Made by a program: the position numbers and the translations under genes
Notes under the pieces: generated by a model
What the model was told of the DNA's origin: nothing
The model's database searches: none
What the model saw: only the letters and a program-made list of their open reading frames with translations
Assembly (NCBI GenBank): GCA_038317375.1
Contig: JBBQBM010000001.1
Coordinates: 1,447-65,446 of the forward strand
DNA length: 64,000 nt
Source: Candidatus Saccharimonadales bacterium
Lineage (GTDB): Bacteria; Patescibacteriota; Saccharimonadia; Saccharimonadales; JAGQMS01
Reading direction: 5' to 3'
Shown here: positions 3,115 to 58,783 of the stretch, piece by piece
Layout of the letters: each line of letters starts with the position of its first letter
How positions within the stretch are numbered: the stretch's first letter is position 1

Positions 3115-3651
3115 ATGAAAATAACTAACTCAAAAGACTGGACCGGTATAGCCATAGCAGTCGCACTAATTAGCTTCGCTGTAGTTAGCCGAGTTTTGCC
3201 ACACCCTGCAAACTTTGCGCCGATAGCTGCTGTAGCACTTTTTGGAGGTGCAATCCTACCGCGTAAGTGGGCGATTAGCTTGCCGTTAGTGGCGATGGTA
3301 ATAAGCGATCTATTTATTGGGCTACACCCGCTAGTTATTTTTACCTGGGGTAGTTTTGCGGCGATCGCACTAGTTAGTAGTTATCGTTTTGGGAAGCTAT
3401 CGGCCAGTAACGTTGTGTTTGGCAGTATTGGTGCTTCAATCTTGTTTTACGTTGTTTCTAATTTTGGCGTTTGGATCGAAGGACGTTTGTATGCTCGGAC
3501 GTTAGAAGGGCTAGCGCAGTGCTACGTCAACGCTCTACCTTTCTTTAGGAATACTCTTGCTGGCGATTTAGTTTATGCCGGGCTATTATTTGGCGCCTAC
3601 GCTCTAGCAACCCAGGCTATATATAAAACAAAAACTGCAAATAATACTTAA
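3115..3651 (+). CDS. membrane protein, putative B12-related transporter component (DUF6580/ECF-S-like)
   Basis: Starts 3 nt after the DUF4430 stop. Multi-TM protein with the PHPANFAPIAAVALFGGA motif; function inferred from riboswitch operon context. Confidence 0.6.
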   Translation: MKITNSKDWTGIAIAVALISFAVVSRVLPHPANFAPIAAVALFGGAILPRKWAISLPLVAMVISDLFIGLHPLVIFTWGSFAAIALVSSYRFGKLSASNVVFGSIGASILFYVVSNFGVWIEGRLYARTLEGLAQCYVNALPFFRNTLAGDLVYAGLLFGAYALATQAIYKTKTANNT

Positions 3652-18132: not shown

Positions 18133-18208
18133 TGGTGGGGGCGGTTGGATTTGAACCGACGGCCAAAGGATTATGAGTCCTCTGCTCTAACCACTGAGCT
18201 ACGCCCCC
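18133..18208 (-). tRNA. tRNA with CAU anticodon (elongator Met or Ile2-lysidine type)
   Basis: Reverse complement GGGGGCGTAGCTCAGTGGTTAGAGC..CTCATAA..GGTTCAAATCC..CGCCCCCACCA folds as a cloverleaf; CCA is encoded; C11-G24 elongator-type D stem. Confidence 0.9.
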
Positions 18209-18247
18209 GTAAAGAAAACCGATACTCGAACTTGTTCGAGTTGCTCT

Positions 18248-18338
18248 GGCAAGCTTCGCCTGCCCACAGAACTTTCATGTATGTAACAAGTTACATCCTG
18301 AAAGATTCTCTTGCGAACAGCCACGGGCTATTCTCACC
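18248..18338 (-). ncRNA. tRNA-linked multi-hairpin module, copy 3 (inverted orientation in this window)
   Basis: On the minus strand: GGTGAGAA, AGCC-CGT-GGCT, GAATCTTTC, ATGTAA-CTTG-TTACAT, GAAAGTTC, GGCAGG-CGAAG-CTTGCC. Collinear with the copies at 20111-20199 and 58675-58763. Confidence 0.45.
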
Positions 18339-18354
18339 ACTGAGCTATACCCCC
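18335..18354 (-). repeat. partial duplicate of the 5' end of tRNA 18133-18208
   Basis: Minus-strand GGGGGTATAGCTCAGTGGTG matches tRNA positions 1-20 (GGGGGCGTAGCTCAGTGGTT) at 17/20. Confidence 0.7.
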
Positions 18355-18529
18355 TCGTCGACGTGTGATGGTAAGATAACCAGTCTGCCGACAAAACAAG
18401 TTTGCTCGGACAGACTTAGTTATCTTACAAAGCCGTCTCCTCTCAAATTCGCCAATTCCCTCGCGAATTTGGTTGGGAAGTGCACGTAACAGATGAATTA
18501 TAACAGATGACGTATAATGAGATTAGGCT

Positions 18530-18973: not shown

Positions 18974-19818
18974 CCTCGCTTTGCTCCATGGTTAGTTGCG
19001 TTTAAACCATTGCGCACGTGTTTTCTTAGTACTTCTATGTCGGCATGATGACTTAGCAGTTCACGTAAAACCACCGATGCCTGATGGGTGAACATGTCCC
19101 ACCCAGAAACAATCGTAAGTCCAGCTTGTTTGGCGAGTGTTATTAGATTTGTGTTTTCAGTCCCAAAGGTGACATCAGCAACTGCTTCGCACTTACTCAC
19201 GATCTCTTGTGTATAGAATGTATCATCTATGGTTGAGCCAATGCGGGATGCGTTTACTAACAAGTCTCCGGACGTATCGGCTAAATCTTCTAGCGAGCAT
19301 ACGGAAGTTACATTATCGAACTGCTCCTTAATAGCCTCTGCCGTGCTGTCCGTTCGATTGCATAAGATTATCTCACTTGGCCTATTAGTCGAGTTGGATA
19401 GGGCCATGACTAAAGTTTTAGCCACTGCGCCTGCGCCGACAATAACTACTCGCTTACCTGAAATATCGTATTTTTCAGTGATAGCCGCCAGTAAACCTTC
19501 ACCACCTTGATAGTGTGCTTGTAAGACTCCGTTTTGGTTTGTGATTATTCCTACTCTTCCGCTTACCCTTACCGTTTCTGAGCATTCGTCTACTAAGTCG
19601 GAGATATTGGAATCGTGCTCAAACCCTGCCGTGATGGCACCGCTGAGTTGTAAGTTTCGCAATCCTTCAACTAGTGGTTCTGCGGAGGCGTTGCGAAACA
19701 GCATGTACACTGCGTTTATTCCTACTTCTTCAAAGTAGGGGTTATATATGTCCAGCCCAGTGCCGTTCTTATCAGTATGCATCCTCGCGATGAGCTTAGT
19801 ATCGGTATTAATCTTCAT
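18970..19818 (-). CDS. shikimate/quinate dehydrogenase family protein (AroE-like)
   Basis: 282 aa with the Rossmann motif VVIVGAGAVAKTLV and an AroE-like N-terminal substrate domain; specificity unknown. Confidence 0.6.
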   Translation of the reverse strand: MKINTDTKLIARMHTDKNGTGLDIYNPYFEEVGINAVYMLFRNASAEPLVEGLRNLQLSGAITAGFEHDSNISDLVDECSETVRVSGRVGIITNQNGVLQAHYQGGEGLLAAITEKYDISGKRVVIVGAGAVAKTLVMALSNSTNRPSEIILCNRTDSTAEAIKEQFDNVTSVCSLEDLADTSGDLLVNASRIGSTIDDTFYTQEIVSKCEAVADVTFGTENTNLITLAKQAGLTIVSGWDMFTHQASVVLRELLSHHADIEVLRKHVRNGLNATNHGAKRG

Positions 19819-19882
19819 AATAACAGCATAACAAAGACGGGCTTCTCAAGTGTTATCAAAAAGTAATCGGTTTGCCGGTGGA

Positions 19883-19911
19883 TTGACATTTATCTCTGTT
19901 AGAGCTATAAT
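19883..19911 (+). promoter_or_regulatory. sigma70-like promoter for the initiator tRNA
   Basis: TTGACA, 17-nt spacer, TATAAT; all read directly. Confidence 0.7.
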
Positions 19912-19953
19912 TCGAGCCTACATTTGCGCCTTATTGCCTAGCAATTGTTGACG

Positions 19954-20028
19954 TGCGGGGTGGAGCAGTGGCAGCTCGCGTGGCTCATAACCACGAGGTC
20001 GCAGGTTCGAGTCCTGTCCCCGCAACCA
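19954..20028 (+). tRNA. tRNA-fMet (initiator-type, CAU)
   Basis: TGCGGGGTGGAGCAGTGGCAGCTCGCGTGGCTCATAACCACG..GGTTCGAGTCC..CCCCGCAACCA. A11-U24 in the D stem and a weak U1-A72 end pair are initiator features. Confidence 0.85.
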
Positions 20029-20037
20029 AAGAAAATC

Positions 20038-20066
20038 ACTCACCCCCGTGGTGGGTGTTTTTCTTT
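20038..20066 (+). terminator. intrinsic terminator after tRNA-fMet
   Basis: CACCCCCGTGGTGGGTG hairpin followed by TTTTTCTTT. Confidence 0.7.
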
Positions 20067-20199
20067 GGTACGGAACCAAGATTTGAAACTGCGACCGAGT
20101 AGAGGTCGTAGGTGAAAACTGCCTGCGGCAGTTTGTAAACGAATCTTCTCTTGCAAACTGGTTTGCAAAGATGAAGTTCGGGGGTCGCCGGAGGTGACC
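20067..20199 (+). ncRNA. tRNA-linked multi-hairpin module, copy 1
   Basis: GATTTGAA, CGACC-GAGTAGA-GGTCG, GGTGAAAA, CTGCC-TGC-GGCAG, AAACGAATCTTC, TTGCAAA-CTGG-TTTGCAA, GAAGTTCGGGGG, GGTCGC-CGGAG-GTGACC. Confidence 0.45.
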
Positions 20200-20209
20200 G
20201 AGTCCTGTC
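20199..20209 (+). repeat. 11-nt duplicate of the tRNA-fMet T-loop/T-stem segment
   Basis: CGAGTCCTGTC is identical to 20008-20018. Confidence 0.6.
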
Positions 20210-20302
20210 ACAGATATTTTACTGCGTAAAATTCCGCGACCCCGCCTCAACTCGGCGACATTCGTCATCCGGGCTTCCGGCCTTGCGAAAGTCCACAGGA
20301 CT

Positions 20303-20319
20303 TCCTCACCCCGCAACCA
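20303..20319 (+). repeat. 17-nt duplicate of the tRNA-fMet 3' end
   Basis: TCCTCACCCCGCAACCA versus tRNA 20012-20028 TCCTGTCCCCGCAACCA (15/17, the last 11 identical including CCA). Confidence 0.7.
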
Positions 20320-20327
20320 TGAAAAGT

Positions 20328-20354
20328 GCCCGTCCTCATGACGGGCTTTATCTT
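20328..20354 (+). terminator. intrinsic terminator
   Basis: GCCCGTC-CTCAT-GACGGGC followed by TTTATCTT. Confidence 0.7.
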
Positions 20355-20494
20355 GGTTATGCTTGCATCACAGCCTAGTTTCTATAAAACTGATAAGGTG
20401 GAAAAATCACTAACTAACCATTCGGGGTGTGTTAATGCCTCAATGGACAGAGTTGAACCTCGATCTATAAGAGATTCGCCAGCCTTACTTAATA

Positions 20495-21922
20495 ATGCCT
20501 AAACATAATTTACTAGGTGGGACTGACGGCTTCCGTGGTCATGCAACGACCGATCTGGGGCCTGGTTTAATTAACGAAGAAACCTTTGCTTTGGCAACAT
20601 ATGCCCTTGTTGAGCGGCAGCTAGAGCTAGGCCTGACCGGCCCGGTTATTATTGGTCAAGACACTCGAAAATCTGGCGATCGACTTCGTAGAGCTTCTAT
20701 TGCCGGGGCGTTGATGCACGACGTTAAGGTTTTGGATCTTCGAGTTGCTCCGACGCCTGTTCTGCAGAAAGTAGCGCTGGAGTTGGGTGCTATGGCAACG
20801 GTTGCAGTCACGGCAAGTCACAACCACCACAACGACAATGGCTGGAAGGGAATGGTCGGCAGCGACAAACCGTCCAAAGAGATAGTTAGCGATATAAGTA
20901 ATCACTATTGGAACCATGTTGAGAGTGGACTAACCGTCCCAACCGATAGCTTATATAGCGATAATCTACAATGGCCCGAACTCTTAACCTGGTACGCCGA
21001 CGAAGTAATAGCGGATATCCAAAAACAGTTTGGTGACAAGCCGTTGGCGGGTAGGTTGTTTGTGATTGACGGAGCATATGGCGCTGGTCAAACAATTACA
21101 CCAGCTATATTTAGGCGACTAGGCGCTGAGGTTGAAGAATTTTGTTGTGATGAATCGGGGAGTATAAACGACGGTTGTGGTGCTGCCGATCTCTCAGGTC
21201 TTGCGAGTTTTTTGAAGAATCGACCAGACATTACTTCGAATTCCAATTTTATCGGCGCACTTGCAAATGATGGCGATGCAGATAGAGTAATGTCGATAGG
21301 ATTCCTGAGCACAGCTAGCGGTGCTCAACTTGTTGAAGTTAACGGTAATCATGCGATGGGGCTGCACGCAATGGGCGAACCGGGCATAGTTGGAACAGAA
21401 TATACAAATAGCGGGCTTGTAAGGATGCTTGAACTGGAGGGAATAGGTTTCGAGTATTGTAAGAATGGGGATATATTCGTCACCCAGGCCCTAAGAGAGA
21501 AGCAAAGTCAGGGTGAGCCTTGGCGGAGGGGTGGCGAGTTCACGGGGCACCACGTTGACACCGATTGGCTATCAAGTGGTGACGGAGTGAGAATGGCAGC
21601 ATGGCTAGCGGCTTATGCGTCCAGCAAGGAGCTAACATTCGGTTCTATACATCAAGATATCCCACTATGGTCAGAGAGAATGGCAAAAGTTAAACTTCCA
21701 GTACCTTCTAGTCAATATGATCTAGGCGAAGATCAAATGCTTCAAAAACTTATACTCCAAACAGAGCAAGAACTCGGAGACGAAGGCCGGCTAATCATTC
21801 GTCCGTCCGGAACAGAACCACTAGTGCGAGTTTGGGGCGAAGGTAAGCAACAACATGCTATCGACAAAGCCGTACGCCGCATTGAAGAAACCATAAAGCA
21901 TAATATTGAGTCTGGGCAATGA
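20495..21922 (+). CDS. phosphohexomutase family protein (phosphoglucosamine/phosphomanno-mutase-like)
   Basis: Active-site loop TASHNHHNDNGWK (divergent from SASHNP..DNG) and metal loop NDGDADRV. Confidence 0.75.
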   Translation: MPKHNLLGGTDGFRGHATTDLGPGLINEETFALATYALVERQLELGLTGPVIIGQDTRKSGDRLRRASIAGALMHDVKVLDLRVAPTPVLQKVALELGAMATVAVTASHNHHNDNGWKGMVGSDKPSKEIVSDISNHYWNHVESGLTVPTDSLYSDNLQWPELLTWYADEVIADIQKQFGDKPLAGRLFVIDGAYGAGQTITPAIFRRLGAEVEEFCCDESGSINDGCGAADLSGLASFLKNRPDITSNSNFIGALANDGDADRVMSIGFLSTASGAQLVEVNGNHAMGLHAMGEPGIVGTEYTNSGLVRMLELEGIGFEYCKNGDIFVTQALREKQSQGEPWRRGGEFTGHHVDTDWLSSGDGVRMAAWLAAYASSKELTFGSIHQDIPLWSERMAKVKLPVPSSQYDLGEDQMLQKLILQTEQELGDEGRLIIRPSGTEPLVRVWGEGKQQHAIDKAVRRIEETIKHNIESGQ

Positions 21923-38493: not shown

Positions 38494-38545
38494 ACCCTTG
38501 ACCGTATCGGTTATAAAAATACCTCAGACATGCTGAGGTGTTTTT

Positions 38546-38596
38546 TGGTAGCGGCGACAAGAATTGAACTTGTGCCCTTAGGCTTATGAGTCCTGC
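38546..38596 (-). repeat. 51-nt copy of the 3' half of tRNA 39928-40004, inverted
   Basis: Reverse complement GCAGGACTCATAAGCCTAAGGGCACAAGTTCAATTCTTGTCGCCGCTACCA matches 39954-40004 at 49/51. A bidirectional hairpin at 38521-38546 flanks it. Confidence 0.85.
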
Positions 38597-38603
38597 TTTT
38601 TAT

Positions 38604-39548
38604 CTACTTGATATTTAAGCGGGTCTTGGTGCGTCCTTCGAGGACGCTGAATGTAGTGGCACGCACTAGCTTTTCGACATTCTCAATAGTGCAGATTCTC
38701 TGTAGACCTTTTTTGCCAATTATCTGACCGGTGATGCCGCCCATGGTCGCGTCTCCGAAGTAGAATTGTTCTTCTTGGATGTAATGATCTTTCAAAGTTT
38801 GCACGAATCGAGCCAGGTTTTCCTTACTGGTGAGCCTGCCGACAATACTCACAAATGAGGTAGTTATTTGTTCGCTAGTGTCGTTTGATGTTTTTAGCCT
38901 GCCCAGTGCGTATTGATACGAAATATAAGGCTTGCTGTCGCTCCAGTCATCTCCGAGGTCATAACTAACGTATTTTTCATTAAGCTGCGGCACGACACCG
39001 AGAACTATGTATGAATAAAGGACGGTCACTAGTGGCAATATCTCTTGGTTGTCGCGGCAGAAGTCATTATCGAGCCTATGCTCAAAGATCGATAGTTTAT
39101 TCGATCGCGGTGAATAATCGCCATACGATATAAACTTAGCCTTAAAAGAACCGCGTCCTTTTGCTGAATTTACAAAATCTGCTTGGCCGACCCACGCTTC
39201 TGAGTGAAACTTATTAAGTAGCTCGGTAAGCTGATCGTAGTCTGTTTTAGAGCTAACGATCGGTCTGCAATATTCGATTGCACATTCTTGTGCCGCGCGC
39301 ATACATTCTTCTTTCGAAATAGCTTCTTGTGAAAGTAGAAGATTGTCAAAGGATCTCTCTGCGAGGGGTGATATCAGTTCTGTCTCGAGCATTGCAGTGC
39401 CCGCCTCTGTATAGCCACGTAGCGTAAAATCCACAAACTGCAGAAGGCCAGAACTATTCATTTTTTCGTGGATACGTCGAACAATCACATGCTCATAAAT
39501 GTGTGCATGCAAAGTGTGCTCGAATGATTTGTATAGTTTTTTTCTCAT
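38604..39548 (-). CDS. hypothetical protein with an N-terminal HxxEH motif (M16-like?)
   Basis: Trimmed from ORF 38604..39791 to MRKKLYKSFEHTLHAHIYEHV. The longer N-terminus overlaps a hairpin and the small ORF in another frame. HIYEH plus acidic residues about 60-70 aa later. Confidence 0.6.
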   Translation of the reverse strand: MRKKLYKSFEHTLHAHIYEHVIVRRIHEKMNSSGLLQFVDFTLRGYTEAGTAMLETELISPLAERSFDNLLLSQEAISKEECMRAAQECAIEYCRPIVSSKTDYDQLTELLNKFHSEAWVGQADFVNSAKGRGSFKAKFISYGDYSPRSNKLSIFEHRLDNDFCRDNQEILPLVTVLYSYIVLGVVPQLNEKYVSYDLGDDWSDSKPYISYQYALGRLKTSNDTSEQITTSFVSIVGRLTSKENLARFVQTLKDHYIQEEQFYFGDATMGGITGQIIGKKGLQRICTIENVEKLVRATTFSVLEGRTKTRLNIK

Positions 39549-39564
39549 ACCTGTGATGGTAATC

Positions 39565-39597
39565 GTCCCCCTCTCGCACGATGTGCGAGAGGGGGAC
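39565..39597 (-). other. 15-bp GC-rich stem-loop between the small ORF and the downstream gene
   Basis: GTCCCCCTCTCGCAC-ATC-GTGCGAGAGGGGGAC on the minus strand, with no U tract after it; 17 nt before ATG 39548. Confidence 0.7.
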
Positions 39598-39612
39598 TTG
39601 TGGTAATGATGC

Positions 39613-39759
39613 CTACCGGCGCTTCGATTGGCCGCTCTGGCCACGGGATCCGCCGTTATGCACGTTAGATCCCTTCGTGAAGTTCTTCGAAGGCTTCGGC
39701 TTTGCTCGTGCAGCACTCTTGGCTTTGCTTTGAGCACTCTTACCGCTTGGCGTACCCAT
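39613..39759 (-). CDS. unannotated 48-aa highly basic peptide
   Basis: GAGGAGG 4 nt upstream of the ATG. MGTPSGKSAQSKAKSAARAKPKPSKNFTKGSNVHNGGSRGQSGQSKRR, TAG stop. Below the ORF-track cutoff. Confidence 0.5.
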   Translation of the reverse strand: MGTPSGKSAQSKAKSAARAKPKPSKNFTKGSNVHNGGSRGQSGQSKRR

Positions 39760-39927
39760 AAGTCCTCCTCAGGATCTCGGGAATGGTACATTCATACCAT
39801 AATATATTAGGATAGATATATCAAGATGCGCTCAAATAATTAATGCAAAATTTTTATCGGAAGATAATACAGACTTGAAAGCTAGAAAACAGATACGATA
39901 CGTGGTATATTCACATCTGTTAATCAC

Positions 39928-40004
39928 GGCGGCGTAGCTCAGTTGGTTAGAGCGCAGGACTCATAAGCCTGAGGTCACAAGTTCAATTCTTGTCGCCGCT
40001 ACCA
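39928..40004 (+). tRNA. tRNA with CAU anticodon (candidate tRNA-Ile2, the TilS substrate, or elongator Met)
   Basis: GGCGGCGTAGCTCAGTTGGTTAGAGC..CTCATAA..AGTTCAATTCT..CGCCGCTACCA. Lies 8 nt upstream of tilS. Confidence 0.85.
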
Positions 40005-40012
40005 AGTTATCA

Positions 40013-40936
40013 ATGAATATTTCTCCGGGTAAATATATAGTGGCAGTTAGCGGTGGAGTTGATTCCGTCGTTCTTTTGGATATGCTCGTCGCTCAGAGTA
40101 AGGAAACAGTTTTGCCGAACCTTGAGCTGATCGTTGCCCACTTCGACCACGGCATGCGTGAAGATTCTTCGGACGACGCCAAGTTTGTTAGTGACATAGC
40201 CAAGAAATATGGGCTTCAATATGAAACTGAAAGAGTTGAGCTTGGTACGGACGCCAGCGAGGCCGATGCCAGAACAGCCAGATACGACTTCTTAAAACGT
40301 ACTCAACAAAAGCATAGTGCAACAGCAATTATTACGGCGCATCATGAGGACGATGTTCTGGAAACAGCAGTTATTAATATGCTCCGCGGTACTGGCCACC
40401 GTGGGTTACATTCACTCAAGAGTCGGTCGGATATCTCACGCCCACTACTGCATCTAAAAAAGACCGATATTCATACTTACGCCAAAGAACATGAGCTTAA
40501 ATGGCGCGAGGATGGCACCAACCAAGACACTAAATTCTTGCGTAACAAAATTCGGCTCGACGTTATCCCAAAAGGCGGAGCGGAGTGGCGAACAAAGATG
40601 CTTGAGCATATCGACAAAGCCGGCCAGCTCGGCGAAAAGCTAGACAGAGAGATCGACACACTTCTGGGCCAAGCCTTGCGTAGCGGCCAAGCCAGAATTT
40701 CGCGAAGTTGGTTTGTGAAGTTGCCGCACGATCTAGCCGGTGAGGTGATTGTAGCTTTACTTCGTCGGCTTAAAGTCGTCGATATTGATAAGCATTTGGT
40801 CGAACGGTTAACCTTGCAAATAAAAACCGCTAAGCCCGGCAAAAAGCTGGATATCGATAAAGACCATTACGTTTTAATGACCAAACGTTCTGCCAGAATA
40901 ACTAACCGAGCGACACATAAGACTGTCCGTGTATAA
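40013..40936 (+). CDS. tilS: tRNA(Ile)-lysidine synthetase
   Basis: PP-loop VAVSGGVDSVVLL and HFDHGMRE..; 307 aa. Confidence 0.85.
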   Translation: MNISPGKYIVAVSGGVDSVVLLDMLVAQSKETVLPNLELIVAHFDHGMREDSSDDAKFVSDIAKKYGLQYETERVELGTDASEADARTARYDFLKRTQQKHSATAIITAHHEDDVLETAVINMLRGTGHRGLHSLKSRSDISRPLLHLKKTDIHTYAKEHELKWREDGTNQDTKFLRNKIRLDVIPKGGAEWRTKMLEHIDKAGQLGEKLDREIDTLLGQALRSGQARISRSWFVKLPHDLAGEVIVALLRRLKVVDIDKHLVERLTLQIKTAKPGKKLDIDKDHYVLMTKRSARITNRATHKTVRV

Positions 40937-47714: not shown

Positions 47715-47895
47715 CACTCTTGACTGGCGTCAAGATTGCTAAGTAGTTTCATTGCCTGAATATTGTCTTACTGCGCCCTAGACTAGCTAGTTTCTCCTGC
47801 GATTCTACTTTCGGTAGCTACGGCTACAGAAAGTTCTGATTCGCAGAAACTAGCGTCTATTGCATCAGCAATCCAATACCCAAACACCCAAACTA

Positions 47896-47922
47896 TTAGC
47901 ACTCTTGACGCTTGAGTGCTGA
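47896..47922 (+). promoter_or_regulatory. CIRCE operator overlapping the hrcA promoter
   Basis: TTAGCACTC-TTGACGCTT-GAGTGCTGA. The embedded TTGACG and TATAAT at 47929-47934 lie 8 nt before the hrcA ATG. Confidence 0.85.
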
Positions 47923-49086: not shown

Positions 49087-49436
49087 CAAAAAACGTCGAG
49101 ATTGGAAAGTATACGGTTAAGCCTCAATGTGCCGGTGAGTGTGCTTTGGAGATTCAATGTCAGTCAAGTCATGGTAGAGCCGTAATAGGCGAACAGATAT
49201 TAAAGGCTGTAGAGCAGGACGACATACGACTTCTACCTACGGAAGTTCTCATTGGAAAAAAGTTAGGTAAACGACCAGTTGAAGGTAAGGTTTGTCTGCA
49301 CCTAGGTCGGCTTATTGGCGCTACATTGCCAGCTGATGATTCTGCAGAATCTATCGAAAGAGCCGAACAGGCATTAGAGTGGGCCGTAGAAAGAGGGTTT
49401 GGCTACCCGGCATCCATAAACCAAGCGAGGGGATAA
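49083..49436 (+). CDS. hypothetical protein inserted between grpE and dnaK
   Basis: 117 aa with ATGA overlap to grpE; Cys-rich N-terminus (CAGECALEIQC); no family recognised. Confidence 0.55.
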   Translation: MTKNVEIGKYTVKPQCAGECALEIQCQSSHGRAVIGEQILKAVEQDDIRLLPTEVLIGKKLGKRPVEGKVCLHLGRLIGATLPADDSAESIERAEQALEWAVERGFGYPASINQARG

Positions 49437-49463
49437 TTAGCACTCTTGACATGAGAGTGCTAA
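49437..49463 (+). promoter_or_regulatory. CIRCE operator overlapping the dnaK promoter
   Basis: Perfect TTAGCACTC-N9-GAGTGCTAA with an embedded TTGACA; TATCAT follows 17 nt later. Confidence 0.9.
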
Positions 49464-51758: not shown

Positions 51759-52352
51759 ATGTTGAATAAATCAATAGATAAAAGCTGGTTTCAAAAATGG
51801 TATCCCTGGCTATTAACTTGTTTATCGGGGATCGCTTTGATAGCTTCATTTTGGCAGGCGGTTGAACGTATTAACATGCTTAAAAACCCGGCAATGGCGC
51901 TCGGCTGCAATATTAATCCGGTAGTTGATTGTAGTGGAGTTCTAGGTAATCGTTTGGCTGCATTATTTGGCTTTCCTAATGCCTTTATTGGCATCGTAAT
52001 GTTTAGTCTGCTCTTTATGTCAGGCCTTGCGCTGCTAGTAGGAGTAAAGCCGACAAAAGGCTTCCGGAATATTGTCGGTATTCTATCTAAGGTTGCTGTC
52101 TTGTTTAGCGCTTGGTTCTTTTTAGTTAGTTTATATACTATCGGCAAAGTATGTATATTTTGCATGTTCATTTGGCCTGCTAGCGTAGCACTATACTGGT
52201 TCGGGGTTCAGTTTTGGTTAGAAGGTCAGGCAAAACCTTGGAAGTGGTTAGAAAGATTCGCCAATAAGTTTAGAATCGAGCCGATCCTAACAGTTTATTT
52301 GTTAATGGTAGTGCTATTTTTATCTCGTTTTCGTGATTTCTACTTCAACTAG
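51759..52352 (+). CDS. vitamin K epoxide reductase (VKOR) family protein
   Basis: Loop cysteines (CNINPVVDCSGVL) and a CIFC redox motif in the last TM helix region. Confidence 0.8.
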   Translation: MLNKSIDKSWFQKWYPWLLTCLSGIALIASFWQAVERINMLKNPAMALGCNINPVVDCSGVLGNRLAALFGFPNAFIGIVMFSLLFMSGLALLVGVKPTKGFRNIVGILSKVAVLFSAWFFLVSLYTIGKVCIFCMFIWPASVALYWFGVQFWLEGQAKPWKWLERFANKFRIEPILTVYLLMVVLFLSRFRDFYFN

Positions 52353-52375
52353 CACTCGGGGTGCTCAAGTGCTAA
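52349..52375 (+). promoter_or_regulatory. CIRCE-like operator upstream of dnaJ
   Basis: CTAGCACTC-GGGGTGCTC-AAGTGCTAA; overlaps a TAAAAT -10-like box. Confidence 0.7.
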
Positions 52376-58511: not shown

Positions 58512-58588
58512 GGGTCCGTAGCTCAGCTGGTTAGAGCACCTGCCTTTTAAGCAGGGTGTCATGGGTTCAAGTCCCATCGGACCCTCCA
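58512..58588 (+). tRNA. tRNA-Lys (UUU)
   Basis: GGGTCCGTAGCTCAGCTGGTTAGAGC..CTTTTAA..GGTTCAAGTCCCAT CGGACCC T CCA. Confidence 0.92.
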
Positions 58589-58596
58589 AAACTAAC

Positions 58597-58625
58597 GCCC
58601 CACTCAAATGTGGGGCTTTTGTTTT
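58597..58625 (+). terminator. intrinsic terminator after tRNA-Lys
   Basis: GCCCCA-CTCAAATG-TGGGGC followed by TTTTGTTTT. Confidence 0.75.
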
Positions 58626-58626
58626 G

Positions 58627-58763
58627 GTCGTTCCAATGGATTTGAATTTATGACACGCCAGAAAGGGTGTCGTGGGTGAGAAATGCCTGTGGCATTTAGG
58701 AAACGAATCTTCCGATGCCAACTTGTTGGCAATCGAGAAGTTCGGGGGTCGCGGAACGTGACC
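58627..58763 (+). ncRNA. tRNA-linked multi-hairpin module, copy 2
   Basis: GATTTGAA, GACAC-GCCAGAAAGG-GTGTC, GGTGAGAA, ATGCC-TGT-GGCAT, AAACGAATCTTC, TGCCAA-CTTG-TTGGCA, GAAGTTCGGGGG, GGTCGC-GGAAC-GTGACC. Confidence 0.45.
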
Positions 58764-58783
58764 AAGTCCCATCGGACCCTCCA
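58763..58783 (+). repeat. exact 21-nt duplicate of the tRNA-Lys 3' end
   Basis: CAAGTCCCATCGGACCCTCCA is identical to 58568-58588. Confidence 0.9.

Follow-up and report, generated by a model that had tools for sequence, protein, structure and literature searches.

Short structured cores in partial tRNA copies of Saccharibacteria, a probable family of non-autonomous insertion elements

Several kinds of small mobile or structured insert have been described in genomes. REP/REPIN elements are mobilised by RAYT (Y1 HUH) transposases, and PATE are miniature elements derived from IS200/IS605. Rickettsia palindromic elements (RPEs) are in-frame inserts of protein genes and occur in some RNA genes as well; the gene products retain them. 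For the non-canonical tRNA introns of Archaea (Thermoproteales), transposition between tRNA genes has been proposed, and R2 is a 3–5-kb protein-coding retrotransposon of animal rDNA. In Saccharibacteria, whose genomes are among the smallest and most streamlined bacterial ones, we analysed a stretch of 64,000 nucleotides (nt) from a Candidatus Saccharimonadales bacterium (contig JBBQBM010000001.1), called the window throughout. Its block at 20029–20354, directly behind a tRNA-Met(CAT) gene that, judged by its sequence, is probably the initiator tRNA (tRNA-fMet), is one unit of a tRNA-associated unit family found across Saccharibacteria. At the heart of these units is a structured core of about 86 nt. 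We favour, with moderate confidence, the reading that the cores are non-autonomous, structure-bearing insertion elements which target tRNA-like DNA and are here nested twice in a partial duplicate of the tRNA 3′ half.

The tRNA-fMet locus is composed as follows, with tRNA nucleotides numbered within the adjacent intact gene.

19883–19911, plus strand: sigma-70-type promoter of the tRNA-fMet transcription unit, TTGACA-17-TATAAT, agreeing with the consensus at 12 of 12 positions
19954–20028, plus strand: intact tRNA-Met(CAT), called by ARAGORN and Rfam (65.8 bits)
20037–20057, T-tract to ~20066, plus strand: terminator 1, a hairpin resembling an intrinsic terminator
20066–20096, plus strand: antisense (reverse-complement), decayed copy of tRNA-fMet nt 76 to 45, TGGTACGGAACCAAGATTTGAAACTGCGACC
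20104–20112, plus strand: sense copy of tRNA nt 45–53 (variable loop and 5′ strand of the T-stem), by flank mapping
20113–20198, plus strand: core copy 1, 86 nt, TGAAAAC...GGTGAC, with hairpins P2, P3 and P4 (104.3 bits, E 1e-23 against R1, a covariance model of the core)
20199–20206, plus strand: tail part 1, tRNA nt 56–63, CGAGTCCT
20207–20308, minus strand: inverted, diverged element of the core family, 102 nt, TGAGGAAGTCC...TATCTGTGAC, matched by R1
20309–20319, plus strand: tail part 2, exact copy of tRNA nt 66–76 including CCA, CCCCGCAACCA
20328–20346, T-rich tail to 20354, plus strand: terminator 2, a terminator-like hairpin, bidirectional in form

The original prediction for this locus had placed a tRNA-fMet gene ending at 20028 with a terminator behind it and a second terminator at 20328–20354, all of which the calls above bear out. 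The tRNA has the A11:U24 pair and a weak U1:A72 pair; its ortholog at locus L036 has C1xA72. Terminator 1 lies between the flanks CCAAAGAAAA and TTTTCTTTGG and thus forms the apex of a long palindrome, and no promoter-like site was found between tRNA-fMet and the segment 20067–20199. This segment, previously taken for a single module copy, does recur, with a homolog at 58626–58762 downstream of tRNA-Lys, but it is composite and consists of the antisense arm, a loop, the sense copy of nt 45–53 and the core. The antisense arm is complementary to the 3′ half of tRNA-fMet at 22 of 32 positions, pairs with the tail in the predicted fold and is separated by the loop from the sense copy starting at 20104. 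The latter reads GGTCGTAGG, where tRNA-fMet itself has GGTCGCAGG, and in the predicted fold it pairs with the last part of the antisense arm as hairpin P1. Core copy 1 stands in place of T-loop nt 54–55, its flanks mapping to nt 53 and 56 (53/56 in the notation used below). A minus-strand open reading frame (ORF) of 132 amino acids (aa) at 19918–20316 had been dismissed as not credible, rightly so, as it belongs to no protein family and overlaps the tRNA and the structured elements.

Behind core copy 1, the 21-nt tail is cut into 8 and 11 nt by the inverted element. What had been described as two partial tRNA-end copies is therefore one tail split in two, and the 93 nt of supposedly unrelated sequence between them belong to a diverged member of the core family on the minus strand (19.9 bits, E 0.0035; R1 was run over the whole window without filters and gave four matches). 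At the orthologous tRNA-fMet locus L028 an unambiguous inverted core occupies the same position (74.8 bits), and further homologs of the inverted element occur in L039 and L043. The two strings regarded as tRNA ends are tRNA-derived in part. In CGAGTCCTGTC (20199–20209) the 8 nt of CGAGTCCT are followed by GTC, the reverse complement of the element end ...GTGAC, whereas in TCCTCACCCCGCAACCA (20303–20319) TCCTCA, the reverse complement of the element start TGAGGA, precedes the 11 tRNA nt; CCCCGCAACCA has exact matches within the window only at 20018 and 20309. Read along the minus strand, the order is TGGTTGCGGGG, TGAGGAAGTCC...TATCTGTGAC, AGGACTCGG, whereas a perfect antisense tRNA would read TGGTTGCGGGG-AC-AGGACTCG. 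Thus, the inverted element swaps out exactly tRNA nt 64–65 (63/66).

The order of events can be read from L115, a metagenome contig with the same promoter, terminator, antisense arm and first core and with a tRNA-fMet identical at 75 of 75 positions. Its tail is uninterrupted, CGAGTCCTGTCCCCGCAACCA, and the empty site is CGAGTCCT-GT-CCCCGCAACCA, in which the window has GT swapped for 102 nt. L115 is both the empty site for the second insertion and the one-insert intermediate. The comparison shows that two events at the Met locus are nested and in which order they took place: the second insert demonstrably entered the displaced tail copy, later than the first core, and not the tRNA gene. Insert number varies among related tRNA-fMet loci, with one core in L115, in L036 (decayed tail) and in L107 (intact tail), a core plus an inverted element in L028 and L039, and a different small module plus a core in L029. 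The partial tRNA-end matches recur at homologous elements, too, an exact 20–22-nt tail being present at many loci. When synteny was followed through the flanking PGM/PMM gene, whose closest relative is 62% identical, the nearest relatives (55–62% identical) had no upstream tRNA. Gene neighbourhood and annotated homologs likewise assign the organism to Saccharimonadales (Saccharibacteria/TM7).

The original prediction had explained the block by insertions that entered the tRNA gene one after the other at its 3′ end, each regenerating the tRNA and pushing the older 3′ end and the original terminator downstream. More than one event did take place and the events are nested, but the second hit the displaced tail, neither regenerating the tRNA nor pushing an older end downstream, as the empty site in L115 documents. 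We regard as improbable the corresponding integrase-type model, in which site-specific integrations follow one another at the tRNA 3′ end, the tRNA is regenerated, older ends and terminators are displaced and the small units are remnants. It would account for the direct repeats of the tRNA 3′ end after units, often exact 20–22-mers, and for arrays in which each unit ends in tail and terminator (L093, L076). Single loci also speak for it: gene-sized cassettes bounded by tRNA-end copies in L058, a 4.2-kb islet between repeats of a whole unit in L045, a tail in L036 that resembles another tRNA allele than the resident one, and two terminators in L047 that are duplicates. Yet no integrase is encoded in the window and none recurs near the 58 loci of the genome scan described below, and the model predicts neither antisense arms nor an insert that entered the tail instead of the tRNA gene. 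The same core stands beside at least 20 tRNA species, so that no single attP identity block could regenerate them all, and it also occurs in upstream configurations, with 5′ tRNA fragments and at nt 25–26, in the D-loop or in the anticodon loop. Integration of this type covers the tail repeats and perhaps the gene-sized cassettes, not the cores.

The window holds two more cores, one in a complete second unit and one in a different arrangement.

58512–58588, plus strand: intact tRNA-Lys(TTT), host of the second unit, with a terminator at 58597–58625
58625–58656, plus strand: antisense arm of the Lys unit, followed by a loop and by a sense copy of tRNA nt 43–53 at 58665–58676
58677–58762, plus strand: core copy 2, 86 nt, in place of nt 54–55 (107.1 bits against R1, flanks 53/56)
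58763–58783, plus strand: uninterrupted tail, exact 21-nt copy of tRNA-Lys nt 56–76
18248–18336 (model match 18246–18340), minus strand: core copy 3, diverged, ~89 nt (62.2 bits, E 1.7e-13)

The 21-nt end of tRNA-Lys has 2 matches in the window, 0 being expected by chance. Core copy 3 interrupts a partial 5′ copy of tRNA-Met within the D-loop; of this copy, 18337–18354 correspond to nt 1–19 and 18242–18247 to nt 22–27. A hairpin with a T-tract (18224–18241) follows, and then the intact tRNA-Met (18133–18208, minus strand), just upstream of which the core thus lies; we refer to this as the upstream configuration. Some upstream-type units are preceded by a conserved leader of ~110 nt (window ~18355–18480 on the minus strand, L033, L037, L068, L075), which reads GAGAGGA..., continues with a long covarying hairpin with apex AAACTTGTTTT and then with ...CATCACAC..CGACGA. 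AAACTTGTTTT also matches the P3 apex of the core, and the leader may be another module of the same system. In addition, an inverted partial tRNA-Met copy without a core (38545–38595, minus strand; anticodon stem to CCA) lies 1.3 kb from the tRNA-Met at 39928–40004, to which it is ~87% identical, and abuts a 395-aa ORF (38604–39791, minus strand) with no match in Pfam, PHROGs or NCBIfam. The gene at 39928–40004 is the third tRNA with a CAT anticodon and is directly followed by a PP-loop (TilS-like) gene at 40013–40936; it may be a tRNA-Ile2 and not a tRNA-Met.

What is conserved is not the whole module but the ~86-nt core (TGAGAA...GTGAC) with its exact boundaries; family members are ~86–100 nt long, the inverted one in the window 102 nt. 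We scanned 185,579 species-representative genomes with a two-block pattern derived from the two window copies. This gave 73 loci, 15 of them chance matches in other phyla and 58 real, the latter all from Saccharibacteria or unclassified Patescibacteria and often several per genome. A survey of 454 kb of Saccharibacteria loci plus the window comprised 81 cores, spread over roughly 40 Saccharibacteria genomes, and 81 tRNAs. All but five of the cores (76 of 81) lay within 700 nt of a tRNA, and 54 were co-oriented with it vs 3 in opposite orientation. Cores were seen almost exclusively in DNA derived from a tRNA whose intact copy lies alongside. The core was found downstream of 25 of the 69 evaluable tRNAs, upstream of 19, on both sides of 5 and at neither side of 20. 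The presence and side of the core at one and the same anticodon species differ between genomes (upstream, downstream, both or none). Partial tRNA copies occurred near 34 of 49 tRNAs with cores vs 5 of 20 without. An independent metagenome scan recovered 34 cores on 25 contigs, co-oriented with the tRNA in 24 of 24 cases, and added Ala, Trp, Ser(GCT) and Leu(CAA) to the hosts.

At gathering scores, Rfam 15 matched only tRNAs in the window and nine loci, and a permissive run (E up to 10) over 19800–20500 returned nothing credible. Scans of viral contigs with strict and loose core patterns gave none or only chance matches, and annotated phage and plasmid records contained no core match. The literature searched held no description of such elements, which is an absence there and not proof of novelty. 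Within the candidate phyla radiation (CPR), the cores form a widespread and apparently undescribed family of one of its major lineages.

An alignment of 61 core sequences defines three hairpins behind a conserved GGUGA head: P2 with 8 bp and a triloop, P3 with an invariant base helix (CGAA-U-CUUC/GAAG-UUCG, with a bulged U), a covarying inner stem and a conserved apex, and P4 with 7 bp and a triloop. Compensatory double changes were seen in 15 of 31 pairs, and 97.7% of cells were paired, compared with 86% after column shuffling (a value of 97.7% was reached in 0 of 500 shuffles) and 24–40% in a slid-partner control. One G.U pair is kept in 57 of the 61 sequences, and the unpaired nucleotides are near-invariant. 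Together, covariation and the conserved G.U pair indicate that selection acts on the structure formed by the tRNA-sense strand, be it RNA or single-stranded DNA.

Downstream units follow a fixed order: intact tRNA, terminator, antisense decayed copy of nt 76 to ~44, a loop, sense nt ~44–53, core, and nt 56–76. Their tail includes CCA and is often an exact 20–22-mer of the tRNA end. The antisense arm was present in 27 of 27 downstream units examined, at many tRNAs, and its mismatches are more often G.U-compatible (61) than A.C (30). Upstream units begin with a 5′ tRNA fragment (nt 1–24, 1–19 or 1–53), continue with the core and ~10 nt more of tRNA, and end with a short antisense snap-back and a spacer with a −10 box before the intact tRNA. 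Some sister units carry other small modules instead of the core (L093:1–600, L029:5000–5200, L085, L071, L050), for example one of ~35–50 nt containing GCGGGCGRCTGGATT that is inserted after GGTTCG of the T-loop, and arrays of units can exceed 700 nt (L076).

To locate the junctions, 30 nt on each side of every core were mapped onto the adjacent intact tRNA. In 33 junction pairs, the last tRNA position of the 5′ flank is N and the first of the 3′ flank N+3, so that exactly 2 tRNA nt are lost. The sites were 53/56 (the commonest), 24/27, 29/32, 52/55, 37/40, 18/21 and 14/17, with the target consensus G-NN-Y (G at −1, usually a pyrimidine at +1). The same replacement was found at 10 of 16 mapped metagenome junctions, and most exceptions to the rule had a substitution beside the junction. 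Cores are also discrete with respect to their surroundings. Those of L040 (Arg) and L045 (Gly), from one genome, are 98% identical, with similarity ending exactly at the core ends, and those of L055 (Pro, upstream) and L050 (Leu, downstream), from different species, are 100% identical over the model columns. Nearest-neighbour pairs of cores came from different genomes and different tRNAs in 36 cases, from the same genome and different tRNAs in 10 and from different genomes and the same tRNA in 7. Core lineages therefore track neither genome nor tRNA type.

The cores do not behave as introns of working tRNA genes. Computational removal restored a tRNA in 1 plausible case among 66, and this single copy still adjoins an intact tRNA gene; Rfam matches at E up to 10 included no intron family, and a group I core would not fit into 86 nt. 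Other candidates were rejected as well. Mismatches between the tRNA and its copies are, by inspection, not A-specific, unlike those of adenine-specific mutagenesis by diversity-generating retroelements. Cores occur on both strands within 2 kb and no GC-skew switch is present, so orientation follows the tRNA-sense strand and not the direction of replication. A likeness of 5′ GUGAGAA and 3′ GUGAC to hammerhead or C/D-box motifs was dropped because these nucleotides are paired differently in the covariation-supported structure and Rfam gave no match.

The junctions also bear on an insertion at the RNA level, in which core RNA would be ligated or reverse-spliced into a tRNA, reverse transcribed and recombined by homology at the cognate tRNA gene, leaving partial copies. 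Units always lie beside the cognate tRNA gene together with fragments of that tRNA, the sites are mostly exposed loops or junctions (T-loop, D-loop, nt 26, anticodon loop), and both the strong sense-strand bias and the RNA-like evolution of the core (covariation, conserved G.U) would suit such a route. Nevertheless, we consider it highly improbable: one site is within the T-stem (nt 64–65), inverted cores are flanked by antisense tRNA sequence, and antisense arms hold an uninterrupted T-loop complement with no reverse-complemented core. Moreover, no reverse transcriptase is linked to the units, no ribozyme or intron family of Rfam matched, and computational removal of the core almost never gave back a tRNA (1 of 66).

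The main rival is a host-functional structured RNA, a conserved domain (e.g., a protein-binding or processing module for tRNA transcripts) in tRNA-like scaffolds, which would have been spread and homogenised by duplication and gene conversion and not by transposition. We rate it as rather unlikely to be the correct explanation, although much of the evidence is what it would predict: strong covariation with a conserved G.U pair on the tRNA-sense strand, near-invariant unpaired nucleotides, the invariant base helix of P3 with its bulged U, co-orientation with tRNAs at 54:3 and 24:0, and 90–100% core identity across species with highly diverged proteins. Upstream-type units lie between promoter and tRNA and must therefore be transcribed. 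The unit is conserved where the DNA beyond it is unalignable. On folding, the Lys unit and the Met unit (with the second insert computationally removed) are predicted to form the same closed five-helix junction, with a whole-unit z of about −3.5. However, exact boundaries and a 2-nt replacement that stays constant over many tRNA positions and both orientations, an element nested in the tail of another, the empty site in L115, and polymorphism of presence and position at one tRNA species are not expected of such a domain. Inverted copies would be outside the sense transcript, downstream units stand behind terminators without promoters, and 20 of 69 tRNAs have no core at all. The 2-nt rule at the junctions, nested and inverted copies and the empty site hence speak against a host RNA as the sole explanation; the two readings are not mutually exclusive.

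Given the anatomy of the units, the discreteness of the cores, the constraint on their structure, their tRNA-restricted distribution and the 2-nt rule documented above, we infer that the cores were inserted as non-autonomous mobile elements by a putative trans-acting activity. The enzyme, not encoded nearby, would recognise the hairpins of the element, cut the target with a 2-nt offset and copy cores into tRNA-like DNA. At the Met locus the first core replaced T-loop nt 54–55 of the sense arm, and later a core of a diverged subfamily, in opposite orientation, replaced nt 64–65 and split the tail. Only insertions into redundant tRNA fragments would survive, since small genomes need each tRNA intact. 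The sense and antisense tRNA duplications may arise in the same events, or may persist because the core stabilises them; plausibly, the template was switched at the terminator palindrome, which would give a sense-antisense-sense triplication.

Several results weigh against this insertion-element reading, first of all the search for an enzyme. All window ORFs of at least 150 aa are ordinary chromosomal genes (e.g., AsnRS, Dus, acetate kinase, phosphoketolase, FtsH, MurJ, LepA, HrcA/DnaK/DnaJ, RimK-like proteins, YebC, RuvC and ComEC), with no integrase or transposase among them in Pfam, PHROGs or NCBIfam, and the family-less ORFs gave no such signal in PHROGs or NCBIfam either. The 64-kb window contains no reverse transcriptase or homing endonuclease. 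Clustering of all ORFs from the 58 loci returned only syntenic housekeeping neighbours; no mobile-element gene recurs. The sole linked candidate, a RayT-like Y1 transposase in L045, was rejected as the cognate partner: it has its own, different REP-like hairpins, and five other copies of the gene (L094–L101) had neither cores nor tRNAs within 3 kb and are likewise accompanied by different hairpins, which by the usual REPIN criterion excludes it. The hairpins flanking those copies are lineage-specific and followed by ACAG, sometimes as inverted pairs on both sides, and look like a separate REP/RAYT system of these genomes; the RayT-like genes of Saccharimonadales have more than 3,000 relatives. 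The proximity of the L045 unit to the RayT gene reflects the tRNA context.

The element itself provides further counter-evidence. It has no terminal inverted repeats and no target-site duplication, and only one direct pair of empty and filled site was found (L115 vs window). Orthologous units are stably inherited between related species, and the high core identity mentioned above is maintained among species whose proteins are ~55–62% identical; this conservation, the covariation and the G.U pair suit a selfish element no better than an RNA useful to the host. Downstream units stand behind strong terminators without a promoter of their own, which makes their expression uncertain, and the favoured reading does not account for the origin of the antisense arm.

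Two loci contain gene-sized inserts between tRNA-derived repeats. In L058:890–2800 (JBLFWT010000014.1), an array at tRNA-Lys(CTT), one cassette encodes an AAA_33/zeta-toxin-like kinase and the other a Peptidase_S51. At the end of each stand TTGCTACAGARTTAA and ~13 nt from the 3′ end of tRNA-Lys. The cassettes are bracketed by two cores that are 100% identical, and upstream there is a partial 5′ tRNA copy that carries another small module. L045:2950–7330 (JAPUFB010000003.1) harbours the 4.2-kb islet at tRNA-Gly(GCC). The islet lies between direct repeats of a whole unit, made up of a terminator, an antisense arm and another small module. Its genes encode a Peptidase_C39-like protein, a hydrolase and the RayT-like Y1 HUH transposase (HUH motif NHFHLLL, tyrosine motif RYIHLNP), with tandem GGGTTAGACCC hairpins upstream of the transposase gene.

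A bolder version of the insertion-element reading, which we put forward tentatively and hold to be rather doubtful, is that the cores are an unrecognised class of tiny, protein-less mobile element specific to Saccharibacteria and homing to tRNA-shaped nucleic acid, with a two-cut insertion that removes 2 nt and generates the sense/antisense duplications of tRNA halves. Such cores might recognise the folded tRNA-sense strand or the tRNA itself, and a catalytic RNA or a host enzyme may be involved in insertion. About two thirds of the tRNA genes in the sampled loci carry units, despite the streamlined genomes of Saccharibacteria. This points either to a selfish element that has been unusually successful and follows a new target logic (tRNA-shaped DNA or RNA, 2-nt replacement) or to a conserved RNA module in tRNA biology, and both are testable in oral strains that can be cultivated. 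Assembly breaks and spurious ORFs near the tRNA genes of CPR genomes are also explained by the units, and the covariance model obtained here is a means of annotating the cores. In addition, the sense-antisense-sense layout of tRNA halves is a clean natural inverted triplication beside terminator palindromes.

The window also contains other repeats. A 28-nt near-perfect palindrome, AATAATACTTAACATGTTAAGTATTATT, recurs in intergenic DNA at 3636, 9884, 16005, 35982, 38465, 48887 and 59310, for the most part directly behind genes, and is a possible REP-like element or binding site for a protein. Inverted repeats ATTAGCACTC-N9-GAGTGCT at 47895–47920, 49436–49461 and 52348–52373, beside hrcA, dnaK and dnaJ, resemble the known CIRCE operators of the HrcA regulon.

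Among described systems, the closest analogues (REP/REPIN-RAYT, IS200/IS605 derivatives, tRNA islands, archaeal introns and RPE) each fail at least one defining feature that was tested. With REP/REPIN and PATE the cores share that they are short, protein-less, multi-copy and built of hairpins with a strand-specific structure, and that they have no terminal inverted repeats or target-site duplication; REP and PATE are mobilised in trans. Saccharimonadales have many RayT-like genes, one of them next to a unit in L045. In contrast, cores were beside other RayT genes at 0 of 5 loci, and they are confined to tRNA-derived DNA and not generally extragenic. REP/REPIN hairpins have a conserved 5′ head and are dispersed in extragenic space; the cores have the GGUGA head before P2, but 76 of 81 copies lie in tRNA contexts. 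PATE insert 3′ of a conserved tetra- or pentanucleotide without loss or gain of bases and are oriented by replication strand; the core target is only G at −1 with a usual pyrimidine at +1, 2 nt are lost, and orientation follows the tRNA strand. Miniature inverted-repeat elements derived from DDE transposons (MITEs) are set apart by the core ends TGAGAA... and ...GTGAC, which are not terminal inverted repeats, and by the loss of two nt in place of a target-site duplication.

Like islands formed by integrases or tandem accretion at tRNA 3′ ends, the units combine an intact tRNA with direct repeats of its 3′ end (20199–20206 with 20309–20319; 58763–58783), form successive arrays, and have gene-sized inserts between the same repeats in L058 and L045. 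Unlike islands, they are 150–250 nt long without an integrase, possess antisense arms and upstream configurations with 5′ fragments, and have the core inside the repeat (T-loop) and not between repeats. Nor are they specific to one tRNA, given the cores at 20 or more tRNA species and the near-identical ones at Arg/Gly and Pro/Leu. Integron cassette arrays have IntI beside them and attC sites with RYYYAAC/GTTRRRY boxes; here no recombinase gene lies beside the arrays, and inspection did not reveal the boxes; the palindromes of tail, terminator and antisense arm resemble attC solely in being imperfect palindromes. The fixed 2-nt loss recalls the 2-bp target deletion of R2-type target-primed insertion and points to two cuts offset by 2 nt, although, unlike in R2, no reverse transcriptase or endonuclease is linked to the cores. 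RPEs, too, are small structured elements in a reduced-genome bacterium, but they are tolerated inside functional genes, whereas cores are restricted to redundant tRNA fragments. Finally, the archaeal tRNA introns are similar in that related short inserts occur at the D-loop, at 25/26, in the anticodon region and in the T-loop of different tRNAs. Removal of a core restores a tRNA only in the exceptional case given above, and the interrupted copies are truncated pseudo-tRNAs, 2 nt short, that stand beside an intact gene in a bacterial lineage.

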